A stretch of DNA of 64,000 nt from an uncultured virus (IMG/VR IMGVR_UViG_3300028048_000125) (taxonomy: Duplodnaviria; Heunggongvirae; Uroviricota; Caudoviricetes). The notes under the pieces are model-generated. The model was given only the letters and a program-made list of their open reading frames with translations, did not search any database and was not told where the DNA came from. Below are positions 3,488 through 64,000 of the stretch, piece by piece; the stretch's first letter is position 1; each line of letters begins with the position of its first letter. The position numbers were made by a program, and so were the translations under genes. The stretch lies in IMG/VR virus record IMGVR_UViG_3300028048_000125; one strand, written 5' to 3'.

Positions 3488-3595
3488 AGTGTATCCTGAT
3501 ATTAGAAGTTAATTCTGTTAGTTGAATGTACCCGCCGTTTCCGGCGGGTCAGGTAGACGTTCGTAAGTAACAGCGGTGAATGTGTAGTGTCATTG

Positions 3596-6478: not shown

Positions 6479-6576
6479 TGTAAACTCCTGTTATGAGTGT
6501 CGTTTTCTTTAATGTAGACGTAAATACCGTATACCGGCAGTAGATGATCCCGGTCTGATGGCTGTTACAGCAGTTT

Positions 6577-6656
6577 CACATAATACGCTTTATATACTAC
6601 TGGCATGTCTCCCCTTTAAGGGGAGACTGCCTATAAGTATATAAAGCTATTATGTG
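6577..6656. repeat. long imperfect inverted repeat
   Basis: CACATAATA-C-GCTTTATATACT ... GTCTCCCCT-TTA-AGGGGAGAC ... AGTATATAAAGC-TATTATGTG. Confidence 0.8.
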
Positions 6657-6683
6657 CCATCTAAAAAAAGACCGGGGAGTATC

Positions 6684-23811: not shown

Positions 23812-24189
23812 TCATTTTGGTTCTCCTTCTGGTGTTGATTTGGTGATTTTGATTGTATTGCATAACGCGCATTTATACAAAAGGCGCCCTGTCGGCTCGT
23901 TAACAAAGTCGGTCTCTGCCTCGACGAAAAACCACTGATGATCACAGTCCTCGTGAAGCTCTTCTTTAATATTGTCAGCCATATCCTCCAGTAGTTCTTC
24001 CAACGATTCAGGTGCATCTTCCATGCTTGCTGAAGCGAGTTGTTTCCACTCTCCTATCTCGATGGATAATATCCTATCATCATCGAAGTAGTAGAGCTCA
24101 ATACCTAGCTCTTTTATTGTTTGCGCCAGCGTACGCAATGCATTTACAGCATAGCGCTTCGCCTCTATGCTGTCATTAAACTGTGTCAT
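23812..24189 (-). CDS. hypothetical protein with C-terminal Zn ribbon
   Basis: CDH...CALC. Confidence 0.6.
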   Translation of the reverse strand: MTQFNDSIEAKRYAVNALRTLAQTIKELGIELYYFDDDRILSIEIGEWKQLASASMEDAPESLEELLEDMADNIKEELHEDCDHQWFFVEAETDFVNEPTGRLLYKCALCNTIKITKSTPEGEPK

Positions 24190-28629: not shown

Positions 28630-28989
28630 AGGTTCTCCTAGTTTGCGAATAGTTGTAATGTTAATGCAATGATCAACGCCAGCAGCCCGCCGACAAAACC
28701 AGCCCATAGCGGCATATACTTGATGCTCGGACGGTCGAGCTCTCTATCGAGGTCTGCTTGCAGCTCTTGTTTGAAACGTTCGATGTCTTCTTCTGTTTGC
28801 TCTCGAATATCCTTAAAGTATTCCTCCACCCAGTCGAGCGGTGGATTCGGTGCCTCATAGACTTTCTCCTTGTTTTCTTCCATCAGTGTTTTAAGTTCCA
28901 TTGTTGTTCTCCTTAATAGTAAAAAGGAAGGACGCCTCAGTGATTGAAGCGTCCTGTTATTGGTTTGACAGCCTTGCGGCTGTCTGGGG

Positions 28990-36824: not shown

Positions 36825-37286
36825 TTACATCGGGCTCTGGGACAGCGCATCTCTGGTTGTGTCAAGCCACTTGTTCAGTGTTGCCTCAAAGGAGCCGATA
36901 TCGTTGCACCTGATATCTGCTGTCAATGAAACCAGCAACTCAATCTGCAGCGTCTCCAGCAGCGACATACACTGTGCATGCGCCTGTATCGCTGTCAGCT
37001 TTTCATAAAGCTCATCCAGCTCAGCACTATCGTCCGGGAAATCAAATTCCGCGTCCTCTGACACGTAAGAGTCGTCTTCCGCGTGCCGGTGGTACAGTTT
37101 GTCAATTCTCTCAAGCCGTTTAAGCTGAATTGATGTGGGTGCCGGTTCCAATTCCCATATCATCCGATAGAGATCCAGCACCCATCCGGACAGATCGAAA
37201 GCCATGCACTGGAAGTCATCTTCCCAGTTCAGTGTTGTTGTGTAGTGAATCAAATATTCACGGTTTTGTATTGTGGGTCTGCTCAT
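36825..37286 (-). CDS. hypothetical protein
   Basis: ATG overlaps the nadA exon 2 stop (ATGA). Confidence 0.7.
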   Translation of the reverse strand: MSRPTIQNREYLIHYTTTLNWEDDFQCMAFDLSGWVLDLYRMIWELEPAPTSIQLKRLERIDKLYHRHAEDDSYVSEDAEFDFPDDSAELDELYEKLTAIQAHAQCMSLLETLQIELLVSLTADIRCNDIGSFEATLNKWLDTTRDALSQSPM

Positions 37287-37414
37287 TCACTAAGCTCCAA
37301 CATTCTCTGGATCGGACGGCGTGCCTCTACAATCGTATTGGCATCCAGTTTGATCTCCGAGTCATCCGGATACTTCAATGCAAGCAGCACATCGCCCAGC
37401 AGGATCTTCTTCAT
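37283..37414 (-). CDS. nadA: quinolinate synthase, exon 2
   Basis: translates MKKILLGDVLLALKYPDDSEIKLDANTIVEARRPIQRMLELSE*, a typical NadA C-terminus continuing CPN|MKK. Confidence 0.88.
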   Translation of the reverse strand: MKKILLGDVLLALKYPDDSEIKLDANTIVEARRPIQRMLELSE

Positions 37415-37507
37415 CTGGCATGAAACTTTCGTTCCTCGCTACTTCAACCAACCTCGTCGACTATCCGGCGGAGCCGGAGTCGTGGACTCGGTTGTCCGTA
37501 GCATACT

Positions 37508-38665
37508 TCAGCCCTGCCCGGGCTGGGAGATATAGTTAGCCAAATTCCTAGCCGCATTGAGGTCTCGATCGAGTTCGAGCCCACAATGCGGACAGACATA
37601 AGTTCGTTGAGTTAGGGGCATCGGGTGACGATGCCCGCAAGATGAACAAAGCTGGGAAGAAGCATAATACCAAGGTGCCTTCTTGAGGTGTTGAGCCTTG
37701 TACTCAAGTTGTCTAAGAACTTCTCCCATACATGCCCTGGAGGCCGCTCTACGAGCGCCTCTTCCGGGCATCTTACGTATCATCTTCCGCACATCCAACG
37801 ATTCAATCACTACAGTCCCGTGGTTATTGGTGACCTCATGAGTGAACTTATGCATGGCATCTTTACGTTTGTTATTGATGCGCTTTTGCAAAGCGCGAAA
37901 CTTTTTCTGAGTCTTTTTGTAACTATTGGAAACTGGATTATTAGCGTTCACGAGGCGAGAGCGATCCATCTTTGCTTGGTAATGTCTGAGCTTGGCTTCT
38001 TCCCTGGAAGCATCTGGCAGGTGCAGCTCTGTGCCATCACTGCACACTGCTGATGTTTTAATGCCGACATCAACACCGCATACTGAATATGGACTCTGAC
38101 AGGTGTGTGGATTGCTGTCTAGTTCAAAAGCAATCGTAACATACCAGTCATCACCTTCCCTGGTAACTGTGTATGATGTTATCTTAGCCTCAAAGCGCGG
38201 CTGTTCAGCCAATGCAATCAACTCATTTCCACAAAGCGCTTTAAGCTTGGGGCATTTGAAGAAAGCTTTAGGACCCCGGTAGACGATAGCACCGTTATAG
38301 TTACCGGCTTGTATCCAGAAAGCTGCTCTATATGCCGATTTCTTTTTGTGGTTTGGTTTACATGCTTTATGTTTAGCAGCTTGTTGGACACCATGCCACA
38401 TGTTAGACACCGCATGTTGTAATGAACATGTTGGTGCATCGTATAACCAGGCATTCACAGGAACTTGCTTATATCGCGTTAATTCCGCAGATAGCTCTTG
38501 TAAACCAAACCAAGGTCTTTTATTATCCTTGGCTTCAACATACCACGCACAGCAGATATCCAGCATATGATTATACACAGCTCGAACATGCCCAAAAAAT
38601 AATGTTAGTACTGGGATTTGGGATCTTGTTGGATATGCTCTTATTCGCTGTCGTACTCTAAACAT
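37508..38665 (-). CDS. tnpB: TnpB RNA-guided endonuclease
   Basis: RAYPT N-terminus; RuvC GVDVG, VIESL, DRDLNAARN; CSSCG/CPHCG zinc finger; start moved to MFRV. Confidence 0.92.
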   Translation of the reverse strand: MFRVRQRIRAYPTRSQIPVLTLFFGHVRAVYNHMLDICCAWYVEAKDNKRPWFGLQELSAELTRYKQVPVNAWLYDAPTCSLQHAVSNMWHGVQQAAKHKACKPNHKKKSAYRAAFWIQAGNYNGAIVYRGPKAFFKCPKLKALCGNELIALAEQPRFEAKITSYTVTREGDDWYVTIAFELDSNPHTCQSPYSVCGVDVGIKTSAVCSDGTELHLPDASREEAKLRHYQAKMDRSRLVNANNPVSNSYKKTQKKFRALQKRINNKRKDAMHKFTHEVTNNHGTVVIESLDVRKMIRKMPGRGARRAASRACMGEVLRQLEYKAQHLKKAPWYYASSQLCSSCGHRHPMPLTQRTYVCPHCGLELDRDLNAARNLANYISQPGQG

Positions 38666-38759
38666 TTGTATGCTGCTATGCAAGTGCTTAATGTGCTTCC
38701 AATAGTTGCTACTATTACAGTAGCACAAACGTAAATAACTATATCTCCATGGAACGAGA

Positions 38760-39065
38760 GATCCACGGTTCTGTTCACCAAGCCTCGCTGGGGCTCAGCA
38801 GGTTTCTTGGCGTTACCCAAGACCACTCACATGCTTTCGCATGTAGCACTGACTATATCATTCACCAATTCCTTGGTGAGAGTACTTCCCCTTTCCAAAC
38901 GCTTGATCGGGTACTCCCTTATGGGATAGTCGATGAACCTTCTTTGCAGCGGGTTTCTCTCGCTGCAAAGCTCGGCTGCTGATTGGCATGCACCTTATGG
39001 TGTTTAGCTTTCCAGCAATTCACTTTCTTATTCGATAACGATTACTCGTTAAAGGAACCTAGAAG
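38760..39065 (-). ncRNA. group I intron ribozyme core, copy 1
   Basis: P AATTGCTGGAAA, Q AATCAGCAGC, R GTTCATCGACTA, S GATATAGTC; GTAA and GAAA tetraloops. Confidence 0.88.
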
Positions 39066-39884
39066 ATTCGGACACACAGGTTCCGGGTCCAGTGTGTAGA
39101 AGATCTTATCAGGATTCTCCCGCTGCATGCGATGGATGATGCCAGATTCTGTACCAATAATGAACTCGTGATGAGCCGATTCCCGTACGAATTTCAGCAT
39201 TCCTCCCGTGGACAGCGCATAGTCTGCCAGTTCAACAACAGCAGGGCTGCATTCCGGGTGGACGAGCACGAGCGCATTCGGATGTGCGATCTTCGCATCA
39301 TTGATATGTTGCGGGAAGATCTTGTTGTGTGTCGGGCAGCATCCAGGCCACAGCTCCAGCTTCGATCCAATGTGCTTATTCAAGTTGGCACCCAGATTTT
39401 GATCAGGGACGAACAACGCAAACTTGTACTGCGGACGATTCCGAATGATAGCCTCCGCGTTGCCGCTGGTAACACAGAGGTCGACCAGTGTCTTGGTTTC
39501 TGCGGTCGTGTTCACATACGCGACAATCGGCATGTCCGGATGACGGAGCTTATAGGCTATAAGATCTTCTTTGGAGACCATATCAGCCATCGGGCAACCT
39601 GCATCCTGATTCGGCAGCAGCACCTGCGCCAGCGGATTCAGGATCTTTGCAGTCTCAGCCATAAAGCGCACACCGCAGAAGACGATCACAGGCGCGCTGC
39701 TTTCTGCGGCTTTACGGGAGAGCTCCAGCGAGTCTCCCACAAAGTCAGCGATATCCTGAATTTCCGGACGTGTGTAGTTGTGGGCGAGTATGATTGCGTC
39801 TCGCTCTTTCTTGAGTTTAGCGATCTCCTCCAGACAAAAGTCTTTATTGTCTGTAGAGATACTTTCGATTGTTGACCTGTTCAT
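39066..39884 (-). CDS. nadA: quinolinate synthase, exon 1
   Basis: ILAHNY, GDSLELS, FCGVRFMAETAK, AGCPMAD, YVNT, PDQNLG, GCCPTH, HPEC, STGGM, GTE, VCPN; spliced product 316 aa. Confidence 0.95.
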
Positions 39885-39950
39885 CCTGCTCTCCTTAAAG
39901 CATCGATCTGGTCTTATATCCCTGGTGTCCACTCTTGATGTTTTCGAGTT

Positions 39951-45168: not shown

Positions 45169-48100
45169 TTACCCTATGTGCTTAATTCGATGGTGGACTT
45201 CGTCCTGCTTGCCAAGATTGAAGTGCCTGTAATCCGTACTGCAGTAGCCCGTTATGCGGCGTAGCCTTCTGACATCCGTGCTGCCGCATTTAGGGCATCT
45301 ATCCGGGATATCTCCCAGATAGCCGCAGCCTTGGCATTGATCGTTCGGAAGGTTGGCGCCGATATATGGAATATCATGTTCCATAGCATAGCGGATCAGT
45401 TCTTCCAAACCCTCAAGGTTATTCTTGACATTACCATCTAATTCAACCCAGGTTACACAACCGGCCGTGGTGTAGCCGGTCAGCTGAGCTTCAAGGTCGA
45501 CCTTCTCAAAGGCGTTCATCTTGCGCCAGACAGGCACATGGAAGCTGTTTGTGAAGAACTCCTTGTCGCTGACGTTAGGTATCACGCCATAATGCTCTCT
45601 GAACTTCTTAAGAGCCGTGTAGCAGAGCATCTCGCTTGGAGAAGCGTAGACCCCAAAATTCATCTTGTACTTGGAGCGCAACTCGTTGATCTTATCCTTG
45701 TACAGTTGCTCAATGCGCTTGGCCAACTCCATACCCTCTGGCGTGGTTTGGTCTGCTCCGATGAGGAGCTGCAATGCTTCTGCAAGCCCAAGTTGCCCGA
45801 TTGCAAACGTTCCATGTTTGAGAGCGCTTTCGATGCCTTCTTCCGGTATATAGCCCACCATCGTGCGGTTGGTGTACATAAAGGGGGCCGCAGAAGGTGG
45901 CTGAGCCTTGATGATCTCGAAACGCTCGATCAGAGACTCTGCTGCATCTTGGATCTTGATTTCCAGCAGCTGCATGAAGGCCTCAACGTCACGATTTGCA
46001 AGCATCGCCAGCTCCGGCAAGATGATCGTTACAGGAGCGATGTTACCACGACCGTACTTCTGTGCACCAGAGAGGACGTCTACATCGGTATCGCCTTTCT
46101 GAATTACATCAGCGATAGCCTTTCTGTAGCTGTCTTCTGCATTCAGATCAAAGCCGTTTACAGTACGACAGTTGTGAGAATAAATGCCGTTCACTGTAAA
46201 GTGCTCAGACTCCGTTGTAACGTCATAGCTATAATCGACCTTGTCGTATGGTGTTATCTGCGTTACGTTGCAAATATCAGAATCTATAGCACCCCAACTT
46301 ACGAATTTGTGATCTTCATGAAGGTGGGCACGTTTCTTTCCTGATACCAGATACGAAAACAGCTCGTAGGATGCAGGAAACTCTACACGCCAACGAATCT
46401 TGGACGGGTCTGCTGCATTATATCTGTTACGATACATAACAGCATTCAAACCAATATCCTTAGCGAGCAACATCTGCCCCATAGCCAGCTCTCTGTTTGT
46501 CGATCCTATCTGCACTCGGATAGTGTTACCAGAGTCATTGATATAACCATCGGCATCTATCATACCTGCCATAAACGACAGCTTGTGGTGTCGCGCTGCA
46601 TTAAAGATAAAGTTCGGTATCTTGCGCTCAATCTTGGTATTGCCTTCAAACGCATTCATATAATCGCGGCAAAGTTGGCTTGACCGCTTTACATAAAGCT
46701 CAGCATAATCACCCTTGATGCCTCGATGTTGTTCACGTCTGGTACAGTTATAACCAAGATCGTTGAAACCTTTTTCTGCCTCGTCGAGCAAGTCTTTTTC
46801 ATCAAGCCCTAAAGCAAGATTCAAAGAACCCGCTAGACTGGCATCACAAAGCACAAGACCTTCAAGCCACATCTCTCTGTCGAACTTAGGCTCTTCCGCC
46901 TGACTGTTATTATTCACATCTCTGTGGATAGTATCACCAACCAGAAGGTCTCTCGCAAACACCACACCCCTATCAACGACCTCAAACGGATGGTCTGATG
47001 TCACATCCAGCGTTCTGCCACCGGAAAAGTCAACGGTCATCCACTGAGCCGACAAATTTTTGATAATGCGATGCTGCTTGACATACCTCTGTGCGACACA
47101 GTCGTAGATACTGACATCTGGTGTGTTGATGTACAGATCTCTGCCATTAGGCTGTACCTTGATGTCATAGATACCTGCTAGTCTATTCCAGGCGCGCTGG
47201 AACGTTTCAACAAAACGATGCTCACCAATCTTGTAATCGATGATTGACTCTCCTGAAACGCAGCCCATGCAAGTCATTGATTCATAGTCTCTTTCGACAT
47301 TATCTACCTCAAGACTGCCATCAACGACTTTAAGCATAAGCTTATTAGCCACCTCAGGCTTCTCGGTCAATCTTGCAATAAGGGCAGCCCGCTGCTCCTC
47401 GGTCAGTTCTCCTATAACGCGACGTTTAGCTTCTCTATCGGATGCTAACCACGCCTGCTGATTCGACCAGTCACCATTGAGGAACATCGGATACAGCCGC
47501 TTTGCCGTGCACTTCAGGGCAAGCTGGAACAGATCGTAATTAGGGTCCTTCGGATACAGGTTAACGCCCTTCTTGCACACGAAGATCGTGATAGGGAAGA
47601 TAGCTGTTGTATGCAGCTTTCCTATACCATCCAGGCAACACAGAAGCATCTGCTCAGTGATCAACCTACCTTCCGGCTCTGTGCAAAGTCCTGCATCCGT
47701 TGACGAGAATGGAAGTTGCGAACCCGATCGAGCAAGGATTGACACCAGGTTATGGAACAGTCCTTCCATTGCCTGATGAGCTTCTTTCCTGGTATCCTGA
47801 ATTGCACATACTTTGCGGGTTGCATCAAGCTTTGTGCTGGCGAACTTGAAGTCATCGTCAGTGAGTCCTGTCAGCCCCATGTACCATGCCACAAATGCGT
47901 TCTCTATGCTTTCTAGTGCATCGTCATCCAGCGCGTACCAGGAAGCCTTTGTCGGATATTTCCAAAGCAGCGCCTTCAGCTCTTCACTTGGCTGTTCTTC
48001 TGTCAGTTCACGATCAAACATGTAATCCTCGAACACACGCTTCAAATAATGTGCTTTAAAGGATTTCCTGACATACGGGACCATAGCAAAGTCGATGACA

Positions 48101-48759
48101 GCTGCGCAGCCGCCGAACATCTGCGTCGACTGAGACTGCAGATAAACGACCAGCTGCTGAAGCGCAGAGCTGATGTAATTCGGGGAACGCAAATCACCCT
48201 GTCTCAGCACGACGCCATCCGCCAAAAGTTTCGGAAGAGGGAGCTGCAGGCAATTATGCTCACCGGTCGCCCAATGCTCCATATCATGTTGATATACAAT
48301 ATTTTGCAGATGATCATTGCGTGTTTTGTCAGACATCTTAAAGTTCAGCGCCACATCCTTTAATACAAGAATAGTCGCTTCTCCTATACGTCCTCCAAAG
48401 CTGTTCTCATCGACATTGGCGTTTTGATTCTGGACATGCTTTGCTGACAGCTTATCCAAGATACCATTATACAGCTCGATGTTGCTGCTGCGTGCCATCG
48501 CATGCCTTTCCCTATAACGGATGAAGGCGGTAGCGACTTTCAGTAGGCCTCTCTTCATCAAAGCCTCCTGCACCAGGTCCAGTACGCTTTCCTGGTCTAT
48601 TTCAGGCACATCGCCTATAGCCTGCACCACATCCTCCGTCACACTCAGAGCGATTGTGTCGCTGGACATATCGCAGGCTTCCAGTGCCTTTTTGATGGCT
48701 ATCGTTATCTTATTACGATCGAAATCGACAACGCTTCCATCACGTTTAATTACGTTCAT
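45169..48759 (-). CDS. nrdD: class III anaerobic ribonucleotide reductase with ATP cone and intein
   Basis: VIKRDG ATP cone, NQNAN, HD...NC, MG|CRT, TNSFH, Zn ribbon, RITGY glycyl radical motif. Confidence 0.95.
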   Translation of the reverse strand: MNVIKRDGSVVDFDRNKITIAIKKALEACDMSSDTIALSVTEDVVQAIGDVPEIDQESVLDLVQEALMKRGLLKVATAFIRYRERHAMARSSNIELYNGILDKLSAKHVQNQNANVDENSFGGRIGEATILVLKDVALNFKMSDKTRNDHLQNIVYQHDMEHWATGEHNCLQLPLPKLLADGVVLRQGDLRSPNYISSALQQLVVYLQSQSTQMFGGCAAVIDFAMVPYVRKSFKAHYLKRVFEDYMFDRELTEEQPSEELKALLWKYPTKASWYALDDDALESIENAFVAWYMGLTGLTDDDFKFASTKLDATRKVCAIQDTRKEAHQAMEGLFHNLVSILARSGSQLPFSSTDAGLCTEPEGRLITEQMLLCCLDGIGKLHTTAIFPITIFVCKKGVNLYPKDPNYDLFQLALKCTAKRLYPMFLNGDWSNQQAWLASDREAKRRVIGELTEEQRAALIARLTEKPEVANKLMLKVVDGSLEVDNVERDYESMTCMGCVSGESIIDYKIGEHRFVETFQRAWNRLAGIYDIKVQPNGRDLYINTPDVSIYDCVAQRYVKQHRIIKNLSAQWMTVDFSGGRTLDVTSDHPFEVVDRGVVFARDLLVGDTIHRDVNNNSQAEEPKFDREMWLEGLVLCDASLAGSLNLALGLDEKDLLDEAEKGFNDLGYNCTRREQHRGIKGDYAELYVKRSSQLCRDYMNAFEGNTKIERKIPNFIFNAARHHKLSFMAGMIDADGYINDSGNTIRVQIGSTNRELAMGQMLLAKDIGLNAVMYRNRYNAADPSKIRWRVEFPASYELFSYLVSGKKRAHLHEDHKFVSWGAIDSDICNVTQITPYDKVDYSYDVTTESEHFTVNGIYSHNCRTVNGFDLNAEDSYRKAIADVIQKGDTDVDVLSGAQKYGRGNIAPVTIILPELAMLANRDVEAFMQLLEIKIQDAAESLIERFEIIKAQPPSAAPFMYTNRTMVGYIPEEGIESALKHGTFAIGQLGLAEALQLLIGADQTTPEGMELAKRIEQLYKDKINELRSKYKMNFGVYASPSEMLCYTALKKFREHYGVIPNVSDKEFFTNSFHVPVWRKMNAFEKVDLEAQLTGYTTAGCVTWVELDGNVKNNLEGLEELIRYAMEHDIPYIGANLPNDQCQGCGYLGDIPDRCPKCGSTDVRRLRRITGYCSTDYRHFNLGKQDEVHHRIKHIG
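46171..47262 (-). mobile_element. intein (364 aa) with LAGLIDADG endonuclease
   Basis: starts CVSGES, block B TSDHPF, LEGLVLCDA and FMAGMIDADG, ends YSHN followed by Cys. Confidence 0.93.
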
Positions 48760-55523: not shown

Positions 55524-55986
55524 CTGCTGTTTTGCCGTCTATGAGCATGACATCCGGAGTCTCTTTGAACTCTAACTCTATATGGTCCTCAAGAGCATAC
55601 TGTTTCGTAACCTCTCCATTGATAAGCCATATCTGAGCATCGTCCTCGAAGACGAGACCTTTGCACACGTCTATAACGCCCTTATTCAGATTGTCGGTAA
55701 TATCTGCAGGGGCGAGATATGGTATCACGCCACCATTTTGCACATATTCGACGACTTTCTTCTTGGCATATTTCGGCAAACGATAGTAGTATCGCATTGC
55801 CACTACCTGAATTGGCAGTTTAGACGGTGGCTGCCCCGCACATGCTTTCTCGATATAGGGTCGTATTTCGGCCTTCCACTTGCGGACTTTAGGGTCCACG
55901 TATACAAACCTCCCTGTATGTCGAGCGGATTGTACAGCTTTAGGTCTTACGGGAATCGAGATGTGCCATGTGCGGGGTTCAGTCAT
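55516..55986 (-). CDS. RusA-like Holliday junction resolvase
   Basis: PKA..SAR, DITDNLNKGVID, FEDDAQI. Confidence 0.8.
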   Translation of the reverse strand: MTEPRTWHISIPVRPKAVQSARHTGRFVYVDPKVRKWKAEIRPYIEKACAGQPPSKLPIQVVAMRYYYRLPKYAKKKVVEYVQNGGVIPYLAPADITDNLNKGVIDVCKGLVFEDDAQIWLINGEVTKQYALEDHIELEFKETPDVMLIDGKTAGE

Positions 55987-56008
55987 AGGATGTCAGCTCC
56001 TCAGTTGA

Positions 56009-56602
56009 TTAGCAGGTGTGACCCTTGGTGCTGGCCTGACGGGTGTTCAGCTTGATCACGGTGTCAGCCTGCAGCTTGGTGCTGCGGCGGGATTCCTCGG
56101 ATTCGAGATACTGTCCGAGGTATTTGACCGTGGCTTCACGCATCTGCTGATCGTTGTAGCCGGAGCGCTGCTTGACAGCCTGGGTGTTGAGGGCATCCCA
56201 GACGGAGGTGGTACCGGGAGTGATGTTGAGCGGGACATTGATGATGCCACCCTGGATCTCAACGATCACACGGCCAGTCGCGCCGTTGGCATTGGCTGCC
56301 TGCGGAGCTTCGCTCTGGTCAACGCCGAGCTCTTCCGCGACTTCTTCTTCATCCAGATCGTCGAACTCGCAATCGAATTCGATTTCATCGCCATCCTTGG
56401 CGTCGGCATCCATGAGGGCCTCGAAGAGGCGGTCGCCGGCCTCGACACTGGCACCGGCGATGGAGACAACGTCGTCTTCGGTGACGCCGAGAGCGTCGAC
56501 CTCGTCGCTGTTGATGATTTCGGAGAACTTGGTACCGGCGGCAACGCGGACGGTTTTGGTGTTGGAAACGGAGTCGATGAGGGTGATGCTGATGTTGGAC
56601 AT
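56009..56602 (-). CDS. tandem ubiquitin-like (beta-grasp) protein ending in TKG-HTC
   Basis: two beta-grasp-like units separated by an acidic linker; position in E1/E2/JAB operon; start moved to MSNIS. Confidence 0.65.
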   Translation of the reverse strand: MSNISITLIDSVSNTKTVRVAAGTKFSEIINSDEVDALGVTEDDVVSIAGASVEAGDRLFEALMDADAKDGDEIEFDCEFDDLDEEEVAEELGVDQSEAPQAANANGATGRVIVEIQGGIINVPLNITPGTTSVWDALNTQAVKQRSGYNDQQMREATVKYLGQYLESEESRRSTKLQADTVIKLNTRQASTKGHTC

Positions 56603-56650
56603 AGTGTGGATCCTTTGTGTTTGTTGTTTTTGAAACATGGGTTTGCCTGA

Positions 56651-57025
56651 TCAGGCGTTGATGATTGCTCTCTCGAAATCCTTGAGAGCAGCGAGGATGT
56701 TGCGCTTCATTTCTTCGGCGCGGTCGGAGCAGCACTCAGGGCTGCACCCATTACTTACTGTAGCACGCTGTTTGATGTCACGCGAAACGCGCATCTGGAC
56801 ATCATTCGTGTCGAAGATGACGATGTCATTGTCACGCAACAGCGCGTTACGAAGATGGCCAATGTAGCTGTGACCATTGCGGATAATGCGAATACGCGCA
56901 TCTTCCACATCATAGCCACCAGTTTCAAGGGCCCGCTTCAGCTTGTCAACAGTGGTGTTACCGTTGATGGCAAGCTTGTTGGTTCTGACAGACTTTACGA
57001 GGAAAGTCACTGTCTTTTCGCTCAT
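56651..57025 (-). CDS. ubiquitin-like domain protein
   Basis: TVTFLV...TTVDKLK...RIIRNG...LLRDNDIVIF beta-grasp pattern. Confidence 0.6.
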   Translation of the reverse strand: MSEKTVTFLVKSVRTNKLAINGNTTVDKLKRALETGGYDVEDARIRIIRNGHSYIGHLRNALLRDNDIVIFDTNDVQMRVSRDIKQRATVSNGCSPECCSDRAEEMKRNILAALKDFERAIINA

Positions 57026-57933
57026 TAATTACCTCCTTGGGGTGTTGTGAGCATGTGGGTTAACGGTACTGACTTGAACGTGTTCTCGTCCAGTACCACT
57101 TCGTTGTAACGACACGTCTGCCCCTTGCGAGTGGGGAAATCGCTCAGAGTTCCATGCGTTACCCAATGTACGAACATTTCCATCATCTTAATAGCGACAG
57201 CACAATTGGTGAGCGCGACCTGGTCGTGCTTCGGTGCAACAATTGTACAAGCGATCTCATCGGGTCGCTTGTCACGATCAGGACGGATGTTGTCAAACAG
57301 CTCCGGGAGATTCGGATCCAAAGCTCTACCCTCCATCCTTTCGTAAATGCTGACCTCACCAGTTGTCTTTTCGTTTCCGCCATTGATAACCAAAATGTTA
57401 TTGAAGGCCTCGGCGTACATCGAGATCTCATAACGGGTTTTTGCGTTATCAACGCAGATGAAGATAACAGGAATGTCCATTACATACATACGATTGCCAA
57501 TCAGCCGATCGGAAAGACAGAGATCATCGAACGTTTTTGTATTCTCTGCGTTTTCTTCCGGATTCTTAACCGGTATAATGTTCCCGATATTCTGCGGCGT
57601 AAGATAACAATTGTAGCCGTCCAGTTTAATGTTCCGCAGGAAAGTCTTGCGGATCATCTTCTCCTGCAGGTCGAGCATACGCTGCATCATCTTATTGCCA
57701 GCCCCTGCACCCTGTCGGATCGCATTGTGGGGATCAAACGTATCCCCATCGATCAGGGTGATGCTGTCAACAATAGATGGCAGTGCGCATTTGCCTGCAT
57801 TAGTCATGAATGGCGAAATGTCGATACTGTTCTGCTCAAGGAAGTCTAGGCACATACTTGCACAGCACTCTGACAAGAGCTGTGTCACGTAGCCGCCTAT
57901 CCCTCCGCAGCCTACAACGTAAAGCCTCAGCAC
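57025..57933 (-). CDS. ThiF/E1-family activating enzyme
   Basis: VVGCGGIGG, IDGD.FDPHNAIRQ, CVDN.KTR, NGGN, candidate catalytic Cys in EIACT. Confidence 0.88.
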   Translation of the reverse strand: MLRLYVVGCGGIGGYVTQLLSECCASMCLDFLEQNSIDISPFMTNAGKCALPSIVDSITLIDGDTFDPHNAIRQGAGAGNKMMQRMLDLQEKMIRKTFLRNIKLDGYNCYLTPQNIGNIIPVKNPEENAENTKTFDDLCLSDRLIGNRMYVMDIPVIFICVDNAKTRYEISMYAEAFNNILVINGGNEKTTGEVSIYERMEGRALDPNLPELFDNIRPDRDKRPDEIACTIVAPKHDQVALTNCAVAIKMMEMFVHWVTHGTLSDFPTRKGQTCRYNEVVLDENTFKSVPLTHMLTTPQGGN

Positions 57934-59300
57934 TCCTCATCCTCCTCGTCTTTCGGATTAGCATGCTCTGCCTGTGCTGCCAGGATGGTCTCATATGCCT
58001 GCTTCAGCGTGGTCAGCCATGTGTTCACGGTATCATCGGACACACACGGCGTATCGGAATACGCGGACGCCGCTTTCTGAAGCAGATAGCACAGAGACTC
58101 GACATTGATATCATTGCCAAGTGCATTTCGCTTATCTACGATATTGAAGTCCGGTCGCAAGTCCATCAGCCCTTCGAAGATCTGTCTGGCTTCTTCGTCC
58201 TCCAGATCCTTCAGTACCGTTTCACCGGTCATCATATCTTCGATCGAGATAAGAACATCCGTCTTGTCGAGACTATCGACAATCATAATACCTGTGGTCA
58301 TCTCCAGAGGTCCTCGAACGGCCGGATCTGTGAAGACATCAACCAACATGGCAGCTGTATCACTGTCGTTGAGAGCATCGAGTATGGCATTCTTGAGCTC
58401 TTTGGTTGAGTCCACGGTAATCTCTGAGGCTGTAGTACCTGTGATATCATCTGCATAATCTGACTCCCATGCACCACTTGACCAGCCGCCGTACCATCTG
58501 CTGCCGTACCAGTCAGCACCATACCAGTTGCTTCCTCTATAGGTGTTGTACCAGCTGGAATAACCGTAATCAGGATCGTAGGTGTAACCTGCATAGTTGT
58601 CTGCTGGCTTGTAATGACCCGCAGGCAGGGTACGTTGTGAGACAACGGCGCCATTGTTGCCGTAGACTTTGACTGTCGCGGTTGGCTTGCGATAGGATTG
58701 GCGCTTAATTGTTTCAACCCACTCCTGCACAGGCTCATACACCTGTGTGAAGTCGACATCCTCCAGAACATCTTCGATGTCCTGATCTTCCTGCTGGCTC
58801 GGGAAGAAGACGGTGCACTTGATCTGAGATACCAGACCGTTGCGCAGGCCAAACACGATGTGCAGGCCATGTTTAAACTGCTGATCGTTCAGGTCTGTGC
58901 CGCTCCAGAACGCACCCATCTCAGGATGCGTATGGATGCTGCCAAGAAGGGCATACCCTTCCGGCATATCTTTTCCATCATCGTAGAAAGACACAGAGGC
59001 ACCGCTGCCATTCTGTTCCGGTACTTTGACAGCCCACTTCTTTTCTTCTGTGCTGTAATAGAGACTGTAGGCGGTCTCCATCTTGGGGAATTCGTGGATT
59101 GTCCCCAACACCTGCTTGAGAAGGTCTGCCTGCATCTTGGCGCCTATCCAGCGAGGACCATGGAACTTGTCTGTATCCAGTTCTTTACTAGCATAGGTTT
59201 GCAGATCTTCAAGGTTCTTTGGCTTAACCCAGCCATCGAGACACTCACTAATCAGTCGTACACGCACACCGTCGTTACCGACTACATAATCTTTACTCAC
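57927..59300 (-). CDS. JAB/MPN (JAMM) metalloprotease with long acidic C-terminus
   Basis: E...GSIHTHPEMGAFWSGTD (HxH-x7-SxxD). Confidence 0.85.
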   Translation of the reverse strand: MSKDYVVGNDGVRVRLISECLDGWVKPKNLEDLQTYASKELDTDKFHGPRWIGAKMQADLLKQVLGTIHEFPKMETAYSLYYSTEEKKWAVKVPEQNGSGASVSFYDDGKDMPEGYALLGSIHTHPEMGAFWSGTDLNDQQFKHGLHIVFGLRNGLVSQIKCTVFFPSQQEDQDIEDVLEDVDFTQVYEPVQEWVETIKRQSYRKPTATVKVYGNNGAVVSQRTLPAGHYKPADNYAGYTYDPDYGYSSWYNTYRGSNWYGADWYGSRWYGGWSSGAWESDYADDITGTTASEITVDSTKELKNAILDALNDSDTAAMLVDVFTDPAVRGPLEMTTGIMIVDSLDKTDVLISIEDMMTGETVLKDLEDEEARQIFEGLMDLRPDFNIVDKRNALGNDINVESLCYLLQKAASAYSDTPCVSDDTVNTWLTTLKQAYETILAAQAEHANPKDEEDEEC

Positions 59301-59487
59301 AGCGGTTCTCCCGTTTCAGTGCACTTGCAATGCATGCCTGAACATCACGCGACAATGTGAAGTTCCTGGTCACGTCCAGTGCGCTCTCGAAACATTTCTC
59401 AAAATTGTGTTCTGTCAGCATAGGAAGCTTCGTAACCTGTGGAAGCACCTTCTGCGGACGTTTGCGTTGTTTGATCGATTTAATCAT
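59293..59487 (-). CDS. small basic protein inside the Ubl operon
   Basis: 64 aa ORF overlapping both neighbours. Confidence 0.5.
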   Translation of the reverse strand: MIKSIKQRKRPQKVLPQVTKLPMLTEHNFEKCFESALDVTRNFTLSRDVQACIASALKRENRCE

Positions 59488-60421
59488 TCATATCCATCCC
59501 AAGGAATCTATCCGCCGGCATGATCTCTGTGAACTTGAAAGCTTTCATGGATTCCAGATCAGAGAAGACTCTGGCAAGCCTAATCATATGAAGGATGCTG
59601 CTTCCGTTATGCGAATACCGGCTAAGCAACGCCTCATATTCGTCAACTTTCGGCAAATCTTTGTATGCACGCTCGGCTGAAAGCTTATCTCTGTCGTCCA
59701 GCAGATCATAATTGAACTGCGAGTTGAAGAAGCGTTGATAAGTCAGCTCGATTGCCACAGCTTCCGTTACTTTGACTCCTGGTGGTACGTCATAACTTGT
59801 ATCGCCCCAACAGATATTACCGCTGTCAAAGATATTCGGGAAAGGCAGATGACATACCTTGGTCTTCTCAAGGTCGTTCATATGTTCAGGTACTGCCACC
59901 ATCATTACCTGATCAGGTACATTGGCAGCTGTAAGCTGAACCCTGAGCCACATGCGAGGATGATAAATATGCAACCTCTGATCAACACCCTGGAGATCCA
60001 TCTCGAACTGGGTAGGTGGGATCTCCACAGTGATATCTTTGGCTCCGGCATCCAGTACACACCACCGAATGAGTGGATACTTCAGATTCGGTGTAATGGC
60101 GATCTTCTGACCTTGCAGCAGTCTCTCGGCAAACGCATCAAAGAAGACATCTTGAATGTCTTTGATGTGATAGCGTGCAACGTTATCACCCAGAATGCGC
60201 AACACCTGCTCTTTGGTTGAGTCTTTAATGACCGTGATATGTTCTTTGTCTCCCTTCAGCGTTGGTACCACTCGCGTGATAAATTCATCCACTGTCATCT
60301 CTTCCAGAGAATCAAAGTGAACGGCCGTAACGACGCCTCCATGCTGATGGAACAGATCGGACTGTCTATCTACAAGGTGCATAAGACCTGTAGGAAACGT
60401 GCTGTCAATGTCACCGATCAT
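59480..60421 (-). CDS. prokaryotic E2 (UBC-like) protein
   Basis: LPFPNIFDSGNICWG with active-site-like Cys; FFNSQFN. Confidence 0.75.
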   Translation of the reverse strand: MIGDIDSTFPTGLMHLVDRQSDLFHQHGGVVTAVHFDSLEEMTVDEFITRVVPTLKGDKEHITVIKDSTKEQVLRILGDNVARYHIKDIQDVFFDAFAERLLQGQKIAITPNLKYPLIRWCVLDAGAKDITVEIPPTQFEMDLQGVDQRLHIYHPRMWLRVQLTAANVPDQVMMVAVPEHMNDLEKTKVCHLPFPNIFDSGNICWGDTSYDVPPGVKVTEAVAIELTYQRFFNSQFNYDLLDDRDKLSAERAYKDLPKVDEYEALLSRYSHNGSSILHMIRLARVFSDLESMKAFKFTEIMPADRFLGMDMND

Positions 60422-62369
60422 TTAGTAGTTCCTTAAATTGTTGTTCGTTTATGATTTTGATCCCTAGCCTTTCGGCTTTGGAACGCTTGGACCCGCCACC
60501 CTCGCCAGCCAGCAAATAAGAAGTTGAAGATGAAACCGATGACACAAACTTGCCACCGTGATCTTCTATCAGCTTCTTAATCTGATCCCTGCTCTGCGAA
60601 AGTGTCCCAGTAATGCAAAATGACAGACCTGTGAGTTTTTCGCTGACAAGCTCAGTCTTCACCTGCTCCATACAAAGACCCAGCAATGACAGATCATTGA
60701 TTAGGGTTGCTTTATGTGGACTGTGAATACTGATAAAGATGGAACGAGCTGTGATCTCGGCAAAGCCTTCAATCTCTGCAATCTCAGGAATAGAAGCTTT
60801 TAGCAACGGAAGCATAGACCCGAAATGCTTTGCTACGATCCTTGCATTGGTTGTACCTATGCCATCGATACCTATTGCGCACAGAACACGGTCGAAAGGC
60901 TTCTGCTTCGACTTTTCGATCTCAGCGAGCACAGAGTCTGCTTTCAGATCTTTGCTAATACCAGGAAGCTGGAGATCTTCCTTTGTTAGCTTGTACAGAT
61001 CCGCCGGGGAATGCAGCTTACCCTTCACGATAAGCGCATGGATCATGGCGTCAGCCATGCCCCGTATGTCCATACACTGCCTGCTTACGAAATAGCAGAT
61101 CTCTGCCTGCAGCTTCGCAACACAGTCGTCATTAGGACACAGCAATGCGGCCCCATCACGAACAAGCGCAGCTCCACACTCTGGACAAAGCCCCGGTATT
61201 GGAACCTCGGCACCACCCATTGACTCAACGACATGGTCGAGTTGAGGGATAATCTCTGCTGCCTTATAGACAGCCACCATATCGCCGAGCTTAAGATCCA
61301 TCTCTTTGATGTAGTCGATGTTATGCAGACTGGCATGGGTCACAGTCGATCCGCACAGACCAACCGGATCCAAGACAGCCACAGGTGTCAGTGTGCCTTT
61401 ACGTCCGACTTGCCAAACGACATCCTTCAGCTCTGTAACAGCTTCTACCGGTGTAAATTTGAAGGCAATGGACCATTTAGGATCATGTACACCCTCACCC
61501 AGCTCCAGCCGTTTGGCTCTGTCGTCTGTCTTGATAACAGCCCCATCAATTGCATACGGGATGTTTGCTTCATCAGACTTCAGGGACATGATCACATAAT
61601 ATGCGAACTCACCCGGATCGGCCATACGATTGGACACAAAGTTCATCTGTGGCGTCAGGAACCCATTCTCCTGCAGTATGTTGAGCATATTGCACTCTGT
61701 ACCTGTGTTCAGCCCTGGAATATCATACGCATAGAATGTGAGCCGTCTGCAGCGCGTGACTCTGGGATCTTTGTTTCTAACGCCGCCTGCTGCGGCGTTA
61801 CGCGGATTGGCGAACAGTGGTGCTCCTGTAACCTGGCGTTCGAGATTCAGCGTCTCGAACTCATGCTTATGGATAACCACCTCGCCACGAACGATCAGTT
61901 TTTCCTCTTTGATTTTCACCGGGATGGACTTGATCATCAACGCATTCTGCGTAACATCTTCGCCAACATCCCCATTGCCACGAGTCGCTGCCCGAACCAG
62001 CATATGGTTCTCATAGAACAGGACCAATGTTAAGCCGTCCAGTTTAGGCTGTACGACATAACCTTCACCAGCTAACGCCAGCGTCCGGTCCACGAAACGA
62101 TGAACCTCGTCAGCCGTAAACGCATTTGCCAGTGACAGCATCCGTTGCGGAAATGGAACCTTGTCAAAGCTGCTTACCGGATGACCTCCTACACGAGAAG
62201 TCGGGCTGCTCGGCAGCTTGATCGATGGATCCGCTTCTTCCATCTCTTTGAGCCTCCGCACAATTGCATCATAGTCTGCATCGGACATGATGGGTGCGTC
62301 GAGCTCATGATAGGCCCTCTCGGCTTCGAGTGCCTTACTTAGCAGTGCCTTGTAGCTGTCTTGCTGCAT
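60411..62369 (-). CDS. ligA: NAD-dependent DNA ligase
   Basis: SDADYD, MLSL, KLDG, TRGNG..GEDVT, RGE, ANPRNAAAG, DG.VIK, HhH, Zn finger, BRCT. Confidence 0.96.
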   Translation of the reverse strand: MQQDSYKALLSKALEAERAYHELDAPIMSDADYDAIVRRLKEMEEADPSIKLPSSPTSRVGGHPVSSFDKVPFPQRMLSLANAFTADEVHRFVDRTLALAGEGYVVQPKLDGLTLVLFYENHMLVRAATRGNGDVGEDVTQNALMIKSIPVKIKEEKLIVRGEVVIHKHEFETLNLERQVTGAPLFANPRNAAAGGVRNKDPRVTRCRRLTFYAYDIPGLNTGTECNMLNILQENGFLTPQMNFVSNRMADPGEFAYYVIMSLKSDEANIPYAIDGAVIKTDDRAKRLELGEGVHDPKWSIAFKFTPVEAVTELKDVVWQVGRKGTLTPVAVLDPVGLCGSTVTHASLHNIDYIKEMDLKLGDMVAVYKAAEIIPQLDHVVESMGGAEVPIPGLCPECGAALVRDGAALLCPNDDCVAKLQAEICYFVSRQCMDIRGMADAMIHALIVKGKLHSPADLYKLTKEDLQLPGISKDLKADSVLAEIEKSKQKPFDRVLCAIGIDGIGTTNARIVAKHFGSMLPLLKASIPEIAEIEGFAEITARSIFISIHSPHKATLINDLSLLGLCMEQVKTELVSEKLTGLSFCITGTLSQSRDQIKKLIEDHGGKFVSSVSSSTSYLLAGEGGGSKRSKAERLGIKIINEQQFKELLNDR

Positions 62370-62400
62370 CGAAATGAATCTCCAGCGGTTTGAAATACTT
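62335..62400 (-). CDS. putative exon 2 of an unidentified gene split by intron 2
   Basis: KYFKPLEIHFDAARQLQGTAK* continues the only open frame (GNDPVIQD) at the window end. Confidence 0.55.
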   Translation of the reverse strand, partial: KYFKPLEIHFDAARQLQGTAK

Positions 62401-62453
62401 CTGTCATGATTATATACCAGGCGCTGCCTGGAGCCAATCTTCCTGCTTCAACT

Positions 62454-63572
62454 TCAGCGAGTACTCGCTGAATCCACAGGCACTTCGGGCCTGACCGGCC
62501 CTGCATTCTTCAAATTGATTGCGGCATTGAGATCGCGGTCGATGACCGCTCCACAATGCTCGCATTTATACACACGTTCACTTAAATCGATATGTGGTTT
62601 CACAGCACCACAGGAAGAGCACCTTTTGGTTGATGGGAAGAACCTATCAACCTTATGGTATTCAAGTGCCTTGTATTTGAGCTGCTGTAGGATCATTCCC
62701 ATCATTGAGGCATTAAAGGATCGTCGTAATGACTTGAATTGCGCTTTATCCTTCATTTCCTGTATGTGCAGATCCTCTGTTACAACAATCCCGTGGCTTT
62801 TGGTGATCGCTGTGGTGAACTTATGTGTCACATCCTTACGGATGTTATTAATCTTGTTTTGAATACGCTGTTTCTTGAGAAGAGCTTTGGCTCTGTTGTT
62901 GGAGCCTCTTTTCTTCCTATTGATAGCTTGTTGAGCCTTCTTGAGCTTGGCATCAAGCTTTTTGAGGCTTTCAGGAGCATCGCAAATGGTGCCATCAGAT
63001 GCAACCGCCACATGTTTCAATCCGACATCTATGCCAACTGCAGAGTTCAGATTATTTGTCTGCGGCAGCGGATCTGGAAGCTCATATTGTATGGAGACAT
63101 GCCACTGACCAGCATAATGACTGACAGTGTAACTTGTTATCTTGCCTTCAAATCTAGGGCGTTCAGCAAGTCTCACTCTGCCTATATTTGGAAGGGATAT
63201 TCTGTCTCCATATATTCTAGCTTTGTCATTAGCAACTGTAAAGCTATCCTTTCTACCTTTCTTGTGGAATGTAGGATACTTTCCAGTGCCTCTCCAAAGA
63301 TTTTGAAATGCTTCGCCAAGATTCTTTATGGCGTTCTGTTGTGGACTACATGCTATTTCATGCGCCCACTCTGGCTTTGCTGCTGTCCATATATTGGATA
63401 ATATACTAAAGGATGGTTTCTGCTTAGAGTGATCTTCCATCCAATCAGAATACATGGACTTCCACTTATCCAGTGCCCAGTTATACACGTATCGTGCGGT
63501 GCCTGCTGTCTTTTTCAGCATCACCTCTTGCTCCTTTGTAGGATACATGCGTATTAGATGGGCTCTATGCAT
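62454..63572 (-). CDS. tnpB: TnpB RNA-guided endonuclease
   Basis: RMYPT; GIDVG, VTEDL, DRDLNAAIN; CSSCG/CEHCG. Confidence 0.94.
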   Translation of the reverse strand: MHRAHLIRMYPTKEQEVMLKKTAGTARYVYNWALDKWKSMYSDWMEDHSKQKPSFSILSNIWTAAKPEWAHEIACSPQQNAIKNLGEAFQNLWRGTGKYPTFHKKGRKDSFTVANDKARIYGDRISLPNIGRVRLAERPRFEGKITSYTVSHYAGQWHVSIQYELPDPLPQTNNLNSAVGIDVGLKHVAVASDGTICDAPESLKKLDAKLKKAQQAINRKKRGSNNRAKALLKKQRIQNKINNIRKDVTHKFTTAITKSHGIVVTEDLHIQEMKDKAQFKSLRRSFNASMMGMILQQLKYKALEYHKVDRFFPSTKRCSSCGAVKPHIDLSERVYKCEHCGAVIDRDLNAAINLKNAGPVRPEVPVDSASTR

Positions 63573-63669
63573 TTCTTTTATACCTTTGGTAGAATTTCGG
63601 ACTATATTGTCCTTATTTACTATAGCATCATCGTCAAAACAAGATTTGAAGAATGACTTAGATTGGTTG

Positions 63670-63975
63670 TATAACCATGGTTCTGTTCAACAGGTATCGC
63701 TACTACCTGCCAGGTTTCCAGTTGTCAAGCTGGACCACTCCCATGCTTTCGCATGGGCACTGACTATATCATTTACCTATTCCTAGGTAAGAGCACTTCC
63801 CCTTTCCAATAGCTTGATCGGGTACTCCTGTTAAGGATAGTCGATGAACCTTCTTTGCGGCGGGTTTCTCTCGCTGCAAAGCTCGGCTTAGGATTAGCAT
63901 GCACTGCTGTGTTTAGCCTTCCCTAAATTAACTTTCTTGTTCGATAAGGATTACTCCTTAAAGGGACTCTTACGA
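63670..63975 (-). ncRNA. group I intron ribozyme core, copy 2
   Basis: P AATTTAGGGAAG, Q AATCCTAAGC, R GTTCATCGACTA, S GATATAGTC. Confidence 0.88.
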
Positions 63976-64000
63976 ATCCTGAATCACGGGGTCATTCCCA

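Follow-up and report, generated by a model that had tools for sequence, protein, structure and literature searches.

The DNA analysed here (the window) is a stretch of 64,000 nucleotides (nt) from an uncultured virus of the class Caudoviricetes (IMG/VR record IMGVR_UViG_3300028048_000125). Close to its right-hand end, a reverse transcriptase (RT) gene read on the minus strand is interrupted by a 1575-nt element (copy 2) that unites a predicted group I ribozyme, an intact tnpB gene and an omega-RNA-like scaffold; a related element (copy 1) lies within nadA. The features of copy 2 and its surroundings are as follows, with a vertical bar marking a splice site.

63976..64000, minus strand: last 25 nt of exon 1 of the copy 2 host gene (...GNDPVIQD), 100% identical to positions 6695-6719 of metagenome contig L051.
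63975..62401, minus strand: copy 2 as a whole, an intron or IStron-like element of 1575 nt, absent at exactly these bases from L051; 5' splice site CAGGAU|UCGUAAG, 3' splice site UCAUGACAG|AAGUAU.
63650..63985, minus strand: predicted group I ribozyme with P1 (formed with the last exon bases), P2, P4-P6, P7, P8 and P9, followed by two further hairpins (P9.1/P9.2-like) and the conserved UGAACAGAACCAUGG.
62454..63572, minus strand: tnpB2, intact, 372 amino acids (aa), assigned by Pfam, NCBIfam and structure matches.
62401..62501, minus strand: omega-RNA-like scaffold, overlapping the end of tnpB2, with its own end at the 3' splice site, and made up of hairpin 1 (GGUCA loop), a nested stem, a 3' hairpin and AUCAUGACAG.
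62381..62400, minus strand: predicted guide and target, the first ~20 nt of exon 2, by analogy with the mechanism set out in the accessible part of PMC10690162.
62335..62400, minus strand: exon 2 of the RT gene (KYFKPLEIHFDAARQLQGTAK and the stop codon), overlapping the start of the NAD-dependent DNA ligase gene.
62369..60411, minus strand: NAD-dependent DNA ligase gene.

The boundaries of copy 2 are fixed, and its host gene is identified, because L051, a contig retrieved with a 22-nt exon 2 pattern when the window end was extended through public contigs, lacks the element at CAGGAT|AAGTAT. Positions 6720-13589 of L051 match window 62400..55531 at 99.78% identity over 6.9 kb, with each of the 15 mismatches lying more than 2.6 kb away from the junction, and L051 6695-6719, which equals window 64000..63976 at 100%, runs straight into exon 2; what is missing is exactly window 63975..62401. 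Two 99.8%-identical phages thus differ by the precise presence or absence of a discrete unit of ribozyme, tnpB and scaffold. An IStron-type element therefore appears to be still moving between phage genomes, since a near-identical phage is without copy 2 exactly at the predicted splice site. The junction CAGGAT|AAGTAT had been named beforehand, in an initial annotation made from the sequence of the window, as the point at which its proposal could be refuted, and it is the sequence that L051 displays. The extent given there stood as regards the splice junction, whereas its exact coordinates are corrected to 63975..62401, with 63976 as the final exon 1 base.

In L051 the host gene (5778-6785, plus strand) is an unbroken open reading frame (ORF) of 335 aa that ends in ...GNDPVIQDKYFKPLEIHFDAARQLQGTAK and reads uninterrupted through exactly the residues ...GNDPVIQD|KYFKPLEIHF that the initial annotation had joined across the intron. 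Its product matches the RT profile PF00078 (E 3.5e-18), and its best named relatives are retron RTs, every one of them below the curated cut-off (top NCBIfam match, retron St85 RT, 118 bits against a cut-off of 235; PADLOC RT_III-A, E 1.4e-33). The predicted product is, on these profile matches, a retron-like RT. The intron lies 21 codons upstream of the stop codon, and only 63976..64000 and 62335..62400 of the gene fall inside the window, in keeping with the earlier remark that the gene lies mostly outside it. The RT gene is located directly upstream of the NAD-dependent DNA ligase gene and overlaps it. The stretch is present in cattle-gut metagenomes from 17 studies. The exact window-end pattern gave no match in viral contigs, and window 62300-64000 gave none by megablast against phage records; relatives of the ligase were likewise not found in viral contigs, and ligase identity in the phage collection is at most 41%, so that synteny is uninformative there.

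Contigs from four sequencing runs (DNA runs X3 and X5; RNA libraries X2 and X6) were mapped on the intron-less L051, no weight being given to gaps in RNA contig coverage. At L051 6719/6720 the contigs of both DNA runs (2/2) and of RNA library X2 break off, and their loose ends are the two ends of the intron. RNA library X6 contains a 312-nt contig (L051 6447-6758) in which the exons are joined (273 + 39 nt), and X2, from the same sample, carries both unspliced junctions. The joined contig is a weak hint of splicing.

The second element of the window is located within nadA, with the following features.

39932..39066, minus strand: nadA exon 1, covering Pfam NadA positions 1-257 of 295.
39065..37415, minus strand: copy 1, an intron of 1651 nt placed by its RF00028 match and by NadA profile continuity; 5' splice site CCGAAU|CUUCUAG, 3' splice site UCAUGCCAG|AUGAAG.
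37508..38665, minus strand: tnpB1, intact, 385 aa, its product 62% identical to the TnpB of contig L041.
37415..37524, minus strand: omega-RNA-like scaffold, matched by covariance model R1 (described below) at 29.9 bits, E 7e-05.
37414..37286, minus strand: nadA exon 2, 42 aa, covering Pfam NadA positions 257-295.

Because the NadA profile is split precisely into 1-257 and 257-295, splicing would restore a seamless NadA. A search of viral contigs with a nadA exon 2 pattern gave no intron-less allele.

The Rfam signal in the window consists of two matches, both to group I introns (RF00028, gathering score 50): 63740-63985 on the minus strand for copy 2 (61.9 bits, E 2.8e-13) and 38828-39075, also minus, for copy 1 (66.1 bits, E 1.5e-14), each covering the full model (1-253). 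The 5' parts of the two copies, from P1/P2 to ~63660 and ~38750, share a mean column identity of 84%, and the homology of about 300 nt first reported between 63670-63975 and 38760-39065 is right to within a few bases. A MAFFT alignment of 11 sequences gives a consensus structure in which 80 pairs are occupied in both window copies, 60 of them identical and 20 differing; 14 of the latter are changed on both sides and still paired, 3 are changed on one side and still paired, and 3 are unpaired in one copy. With 17 of 20 differing pairs still paired, the covariation proposed in the initial annotation holds, down to its individual examples: the C-G/G-C swap in P2 (TAACGA/TCGTTA versus TAAGGA/TCCTTA), three swapped pairs in P4 (TTGCTG/CAGCAG versus TTAGGG/CCTAAG), TCCC/GGGA versus TCCT/AGGA, and TCACCA/TGGTGA versus TTACCT/AGGTAA are all correct. 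Across the 11 relatives, 96.2% of cells are paired, compared with 75.3% in shuffled alignments and 31-43% when the 3' partners are slid, and both-sided changes occur in 53 of 86 ribozyme pairs; none of 500 shuffles reaches any of these measures, a comparison somewhat in favour of the consensus structure, which this alignment itself supplied. These comparisons indicate that copies 1 and 2 are homologous group I introns kept by compensatory changes.

In P1, the exon bases GGAU|UC of copy 2 pair with GAGUCC and the bases GAAU|C of copy 1 with GGUUC, in both cases with a U.G wobble at the splice site; the guide is re-tuned to the new exon, as had been described. Extra hairpins are seen between P7 and P8. 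At their 3' ends, both copies contain the shared motif GUUGAAG(C/U)AG that had been pointed out before, and both terminate in UCAUG(A/C)CAG, with G as the last base. The invariant UGAACAGAACC after P9.2 (63660-63680 and 38750-38770; alignment columns 412-426) could pair with an invariant GGUUC of J6/7 according to RNAalifold on three sequences; neither side varies.

That the element does not splice at all, leaving an RT truncated 21 codons early and a vestigial likeness to an intron, is very improbable. The loss would be confined to the last 21 residues of the RT, which makes such an insertion conceivable for this gene, but the full ribozyme model is matched above the gathering score with its helices kept by compensatory changes, P1 is re-tuned to the RT exon and keeps a U.G wobble, the exons are exactly joined in a contig from an RNA library, and the sister copy breaks nadA at profile position 257/295, thereby separating a conserved C-terminal segment.

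Both TnpB proteins contain the Pfam domains HTH_OrfB_IS605, OrfB_IS605 and Cas12f1-like_TNB, and score 267.7 (TnpB2) and 207.7 bits (TnpB1) with NCBIfam guided_TnpB (cut-off 100). TnpB2 matches the ISDra2 TnpB structures 8bf8, 8exa and 8h1j over residues 2-358 (E 2e-48). The two are clearly divergent, as had been noted, with 35-36% identity to each other. The RuvC D/E/D residues and two CxxC zinc-finger motifs are retained in all eight aligned TnpBs, which are 34-62% identical; the D/E/D positions are those we take to be catalytic, from alignment to ISDra2-like chains. A tblastn search with TnpB2 against 50,697 phage records found 423 records, all at or below about 36% identity. Among eight sampled phage tnpB records with 1.5-kb flanks, none contained a group I intron at the Rfam gathering score, so that phage tnpB genes in general do not appear to be intronic.

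The last ~100 nt of all eight tnpB-bearing elements fold into one architecture, with z-scores of -3.4 to -5.3 (minimum free energy z -3.41 for copy 2 and -3.63 for copy 1). A hairpin of 5-6 bp with a GGUCA-type loop is followed by a 5-bp stem around a long hairpin, then by a 3' hairpin and a single-stranded AUCAUG(A/C)CAG tail. As MAFFT misaligned the 3' regions of the two TnpB lineages, single folds and a covariance model (R1) were used instead, the latter built from copy 2 and the element of contig L005. Searched against 444 kb of loci plus the window, R1 recovers the other six elements over the whole length of the model, with the predicted 3' splice site as the end of every match; the sole extra match, in L029, is weak (E 0.39) and unexplained. 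In the alignment fitted to the model, pairing is seen in 95.1% of cells, and both-sided changes are found in 23 of 24 pairs. Of 80 other phage tnpB loci, 41 are also matched by R1, in every case at the 3' end of tnpB and on its strand, and the scaffold would thus belong to the TnpB clade and not to the ribozyme. The 3' structure is, on these matches, a predicted omega-RNA scaffold of the TnpB clade. It has no family in Rfam, where both 3' regions give only noise at E up to 10. In four other loci of the same phage collection (L071, L072, L077 and L078, ~3400-3490), tnpB is followed by the Rfam 'Transposase-2 RNA' motif RF03015 (60-85 bits), a different omega-RNA type in place of the R1 scaffold. 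For the window elements, we infer a probable role as RNA-guided nuclease from the intact TnpB and the conserved scaffold.

A 19-nt ribozyme-core pattern (19-mer) was found at 50 loci in viral contigs, with a tnpB within 4 kb at six of them (five distinct regions, six elements) and none at the other 44. L041, a related phage syntenic with L051, contains a third copy in its homologue of a 248-aa gene that is unbroken in L051, and joining the L041 exons restores the reading frame. L020, a contig of the phage G001, has one sister tnpB intron in the homologous RT gene, near its 5' end. In this 192-kb phage (L020:3900-5451) the RT is interrupted around ...IPKKDGS|LRYLLIPND..., so that the gene family has been invaded at two positions. 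Further copies occur in ~190-kb phage contigs, and in other genes of G001 and of G004. The spread to several genes that the initial annotation had proposed is thereby borne out in nadA, the RT gene, the 248-aa L041 gene and the ~190-kb phage contigs.

The genome of G001 (192,052 bp, with direct terminal repeats, 100% complete) contains 12 group I matches (E <= 1e-3) and six tnpB genes, each of the six with a same-strand ribozyme match ~1.03-1.06 kb upstream of it. Four related phage records together hold 15 tnpB genes over the cut-off, 12 of them 1.03-1.09 kb downstream of a same-strand group I match; two of these records are 100% and 97% complete (192 and 190 kb), with six and four tnpB genes, respectively. 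The counts of intron-linked tnpB are lower bounds, in that Rfam gathering misses L005, L015, L020, L060 and L061, family members that alignment by hand brings in. The ribozyme gave no match by blastn (distant mode) in 50,697 phage records. Among 185,579 species genomes, the 19-mer was found in five short scaffolds of metagenome-assembled genomes, one of them with a tnpB at 46% identity, and these give no clue to the host.

Similarities of the ribozyme and of its cargo disagree with one another, which points to recombination of modules. In the ribozyme core, copies 1 and 2 are mutually nearest (86%), and L041 is 76-77% identical to both, whereas in the P9.1-P9.2 hairpins copy 2 and L041 are 91% identical and copy 1 reaches 64-66% to either. 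TnpB1 is nearest to the L041 protein (62%) and TnpB2 to that of L005 (52%). L041 and copy 1 are 93.6% identical over the final 157 nt of L041, and between L014 and L020 the ribozymes are 85-89% alike but the TnpBs 34% identical. This pattern supports either exchange of the cargo or homogenization of the ribozymes within one genome. The exchange of nucleases that had first been suspected from the window agrees with a core identity of 86% against 36% for the TnpBs of the two copies, with L005 and L041 as the nearest TnpB neighbours.

In a distinctly unlikely alternative, the ribozyme is the mobile agent, spreading by reverse splicing followed by recombination of complementary DNA (cDNA) or phage recombination, with TnpB a passenger or in some other role and the presence/absence pattern being intron loss through the phage's own RT. 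In 44 of 50 viral 19-mer loci there is no tnpB within 4 kb, an RT is encoded by the phage, and, as would be expected from reverse splicing, the insertion sites are alike in the 4-5 nt paired with the P1 guide. The ORF-less relatives L013, L018 and L047 end ~25 nt past the conserved GAACAGAACC motif. These relatives stop at the same distance (~25 nt) past the conserved UGAACAGAACC motif, and in the larger elements tnpB and its RNA are inserted at that UGAACAGAACC-end position. This alternative is hard to reconcile with the retention of catalytic residues in all eight TnpBs despite their 34-62% identity and with covariation in the scaffold, which together point to selection on the nuclease and its RNA; nor does it fit a scaffold that ends exactly at the splice site throughout the set, which would place the guide in exon 2. 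The comparisons show, as far as sequence can, selection on both the RNA structure and the catalytic residues of the nuclease.

L018 and L047 (~3860-4900) contain two group I ribozymes ~370 nt apart on the same strand, which may be tandem introns of a single gene. The second ribozyme has the same P2 and J2/3 sequence and a different, much longer P5 region.

The 5' flanks of ten tnpB-bearing elements could be mapped. GGAT precedes copy 2 and L067, GAAT precedes copy 1 and L068, CTAT (TGCTAT) L041 and GTAT (AGGTAT) L014, and in the sister clade AGTT, CGTT, CGTT and GGTT precede L015, L020a, L020b and L112, respectively. Placement rests on the empty site for copy 2, which proves it, on profile continuity for copy 1, on reading frame together with P1 pairing by eye for L041, L014, L015, L020a and L020b, and on P1 pairing by eye for L067, L068 and L112; L005 and L060, whose 5' site is unplaceable, were left out. 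The sites ending in GRAT that had been expected are thus seen in four of ten flanks, and the remaining six are of the types YTAT/GTAT (two) and GTT (four). All flanks share only the final T, six of ten a final AT, and the last exon bases are always paired with a P1 guide of the form GGNYC.

No Y1_Tnp domain was found in 78 of the 79 window ORFs of at least 80 aa, these being the ones scanned, and neither Y1_Tnp nor a resolvase was found in the four related phage records; the scan for a trans-acting tnpA that had been suggested therefore gave none in either set. This bears directly on a further reading, in itself unlikely, in which the elements are canonical IStrons that move only as DNA transposons. 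A Y1 TnpA would be provided in trans by a host IS200/IS605 element or a co-resident element, TnpB would merely restore excised copies, and L051 would be either a TnpA excision product or a site never hit. Such movement would explain copies in genes as unrelated as nadA, RT and the 248-aa L041 gene, and the right-end-like terminus TCATG(A/C)CAG common to all elements, and precise excision would leave exactly the L051 junction; moreover, the IStrons of Clostridioides difficile are also without full-length TnpA and are called non-autonomous in the accessible text of PMC10690162. Against this, the scanned window ORFs and the four related records, two of which are 97-100% complete, yielded no tnpA of either type, and both the flanks and the matching P1 guides vary by site, unlike the fixed pentanucleotide of group A IStrons in the available part of the survey PMC4227781.

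The reading that we consider probable is that window 63975..62401 is a mobile IStron-type composite of ribozyme, tnpB and scaffold that spreads by RNA-guided homing and whose modules are reshuffled. The 5' group I ribozyme would remove the whole element from the RT mRNA, so that the host gene keeps working. The last base of the predicted scaffold is also the terminal G of the intron, and unspliced transcripts would read from the scaffold into exon 2, making the first 16-20 nt of exon 2 the guide. TnpB with this guide RNA would cut the exon 1|exon 2 junction of intron-less genomes, for which the final bases of exon 1 (..GGAT) would provide the target-adjacent motif (TAM). In a mixed infection, repair from the intron-bearing genome would copy the element in, which is homing with an RNA-guided nuclease in the role of a protein homing endonuclease. 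Splicing would destroy the guide, and two transcript fates would then compete. The P1 guide at each site matches that site's exon end, and recombination would have reshuffled ribozyme, peripheral hairpins, tnpB and scaffold between copies. The steps involving guide, TAM and homing are modelled on the mechanism published for the TnpBs of IS200/IS605 elements and IStrons, as given in the accessible part of PMC10690162.

Several points weigh against this reading. The polymorphism could be intron loss, through cDNA recombination involving the phage RT, or excision by a host TnpA. Homing covers spread to the same site only and not the arrival in nadA, RT or other genes. The exon ends are not one conserved motif, unlike what a shared TAM would lead one to expect, yet the TnpBs themselves share just 34-62% identity. 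The incongruence between modules is drawn from identity matrices and a Biopython neighbour-joining sketch only, the alignment behind the scaffold covariation was fitted to the structure of the model and favours that structure, and the joined X6 contig could stem from an intron-less phage such as L051 or from carried-over DNA. For the arrival in new genes, possible routes are a host tnpA acting in trans, reverse splicing with cDNA recombination, and illegitimate recombination.

A bolder and more tentative version of the homing proposal is that these are autonomous RNA-guided phage homing introns that require no transposase. Rare ectopic insertion beside a permissive ..AT or ..GTT motif, through reverse splicing and the phage RT or through illegitimate recombination, would be followed by re-tuning of the 4-6-nt P1 guide. 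Since the guide would be whatever follows the last base of the element, a new insertion would at once make a nuclease aimed at its own new empty site. If true, this would explain the presence of six tnpB introns and six more group I introns, with no tnpA, in a 192-kb genome, and the shuffling of ribozyme, nuclease and scaffold modules.

Classical phage group I introns with protein homing endonucleases, such as T4 td with I-TevI and the Twort introns, cited in PMC13565253 and PMC4227781, offer one comparison. They are self-splicing, as the present elements are predicted to be, and like these they occupy conserved phage genes, encode a nuclease and are present or absent among close relatives, and mixed infection is the expected arena of homing for both. 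Here, by contrast, the nuclease would be TnpB with a guide RNA, and the predicted target is defined by a short TAM and 16-20 nt of exon 2 as opposed to protein-DNA contacts; as the target would be set by exon 2 sequence, a new insertion would re-programme the nuclease automatically. A second comparison is the ISDra2 TnpB-omega-RNA system, reportedly described by Karvelis et al. in 2021. There too, the 3' end of the ORF is overlapped by a structured RNA that extends to the right end of the element, but ISDra2 is a plain insertion sequence with tnpA and without a ribozyme, and its TAM is TTGAT, in contrast to the flanks found here.

Known carriers of IStrons are clostridia, bacilli, fusobacteria and two Clostridium botulinum phages. 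The accessible part of the survey by Tourasse et al. 2014 (PMC4227781) covers 294 full-length copies, including two from C. botulinum phages, and lists ORF-B-only IStrons in its Table 1. In what is available of Zedaveinyte et al. (PMC10690162), a C. botulinum IStron is reconstituted biochemically, and for IS200/IS605 TnpB the guide is the DNA flanking the right end of the element and the TAM flanks its left end. The C. botulinum IStron of that account resembles the present elements in that one transcript contains both intron and guide RNA and the scaffold abuts the 3' splice site, so that splicing and guide formation would be mutually exclusive. Splicing of the C. botulinum IStron is reportedly repressed by TnpB. 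The spread of TnpB-only IStrons by intron homing is raised as an idea in the review PMC13565253, in the portion accessible to us.

The closest match is with group A IStrons (CdISt1 of Clostridioides difficile), for which the following features are taken from the accessible parts of PMC4227781 and PMC13565253. As here, a 5' group I ribozyme is joined to a 3' insertion-sequence module, the 5' exon ends in U with a U.G wobble in P1, the element ends in ..CAG, TnpB-only variants exist and copies occur in unrelated protein genes; the TnpB of the phage elements, as in group A, scores best against the IS200/IS605 model. The two differ in their flanks, which are TTGAT, ATTAT or TTTAT in group A (PMC4227781) as against GGAT, GAAT, CTAT, GTAT and GTT with a changing P1 guide here, and in their terminus, TCAG as against (A/C)CAG in all eight elements, so that only CAG is shared. 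A tnpA or its remnant, expected in an IStron element or its family, was not found here in the scanned window ORFs or the four related records, and the hosts are large uncultured gut phages as opposed to the Firmicutes or Fusobacteria chromosomes given for group A. Group B (IS607-type) elements such as CbISt3/4 of the C. botulinum phages c-st and D-1873 (PMC4227781, accessible part) are phage-borne, as here; in that description they insert after GG, end in CGG, splice after G and carry, or ancestrally had, a serine TnpA, whereas in the present elements the predicted splicing follows U, the terminus is CAG and no serine recombinase lies nearby. The phage family thus resembles IStrons in architecture, appears nearest to group A of the IS200/IS605 type and would constitute a new, TnpB-only lineage. 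A description of this IStron family was not found in the open literature, with subscription journals and bioRxiv supplements outside reach.

The rest of the window indicates, by its gene content, a large phage: it encodes NrdD with an intein, NrdG, ThyX, dUTPase, two RNA ligases, a polynucleotide kinase-phosphatase-ligase fusion, an HNH endonuclease and a sigma factor in addition to the NAD-dependent DNA ligase. Other selfish elements are present. NrdD (1196 aa, 45169-48759, minus strand) contains an intein with LAGLIDADG (Pfam Intein_splicing and LAGLIDADG_3), and a free-standing HNH_3 and NUMOD4 endonuclease of 326 aa (20304-21284, minus strand) belongs to a type characteristic of phage homing endonucleases. 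Immediately downstream of the ligase (57025-60421, minus strand) lie weak ThiF (E1-like) and Prok-E2_D (E2-like) neighbours, the former at E 2e-07 and 30.8 bits (cut-off 28.1), with no single stretch passing alone; the pair may be a phage ubiquitin-like conjugation module. A further group of genes is located as follows.

13408-14073, 16231-17286, 24186-26456, 27511-28707 and 29644-30957, minus strand: RNA-repair/NAD cluster.

This cluster comprises a cytidylyltransferase-like protein (NMNAT-type), RlaP, a kinase-phosphatase-Rnl1 fusion, Rnl2 and a LigD-type phosphoesterase; taken with nadA, it suggests that the phage may counter host attack on tRNA or NAD.

Elements of this kind have already been described, and the value of the present case is as a test system and as population evidence, not as a new principle. 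It offers a natural before-and-after pair, in which 99.8%-identical phages differ by the element at single-base precision, and because the site is empty in L051 the predicted TAM and guide can be read directly. To this it adds two diverged copies in one genome, with module exchange and proliferation in the absence of a detected transposase. The elements could serve as a substrate for testing RNA-guided homing and as a source of compact TnpB/omega-RNA pairs with predicted natural targets. For the biology of the family, the sequences portray a lineage that is abundant in large gut phages carrying no detected transposase and that appears to recombine in modules.

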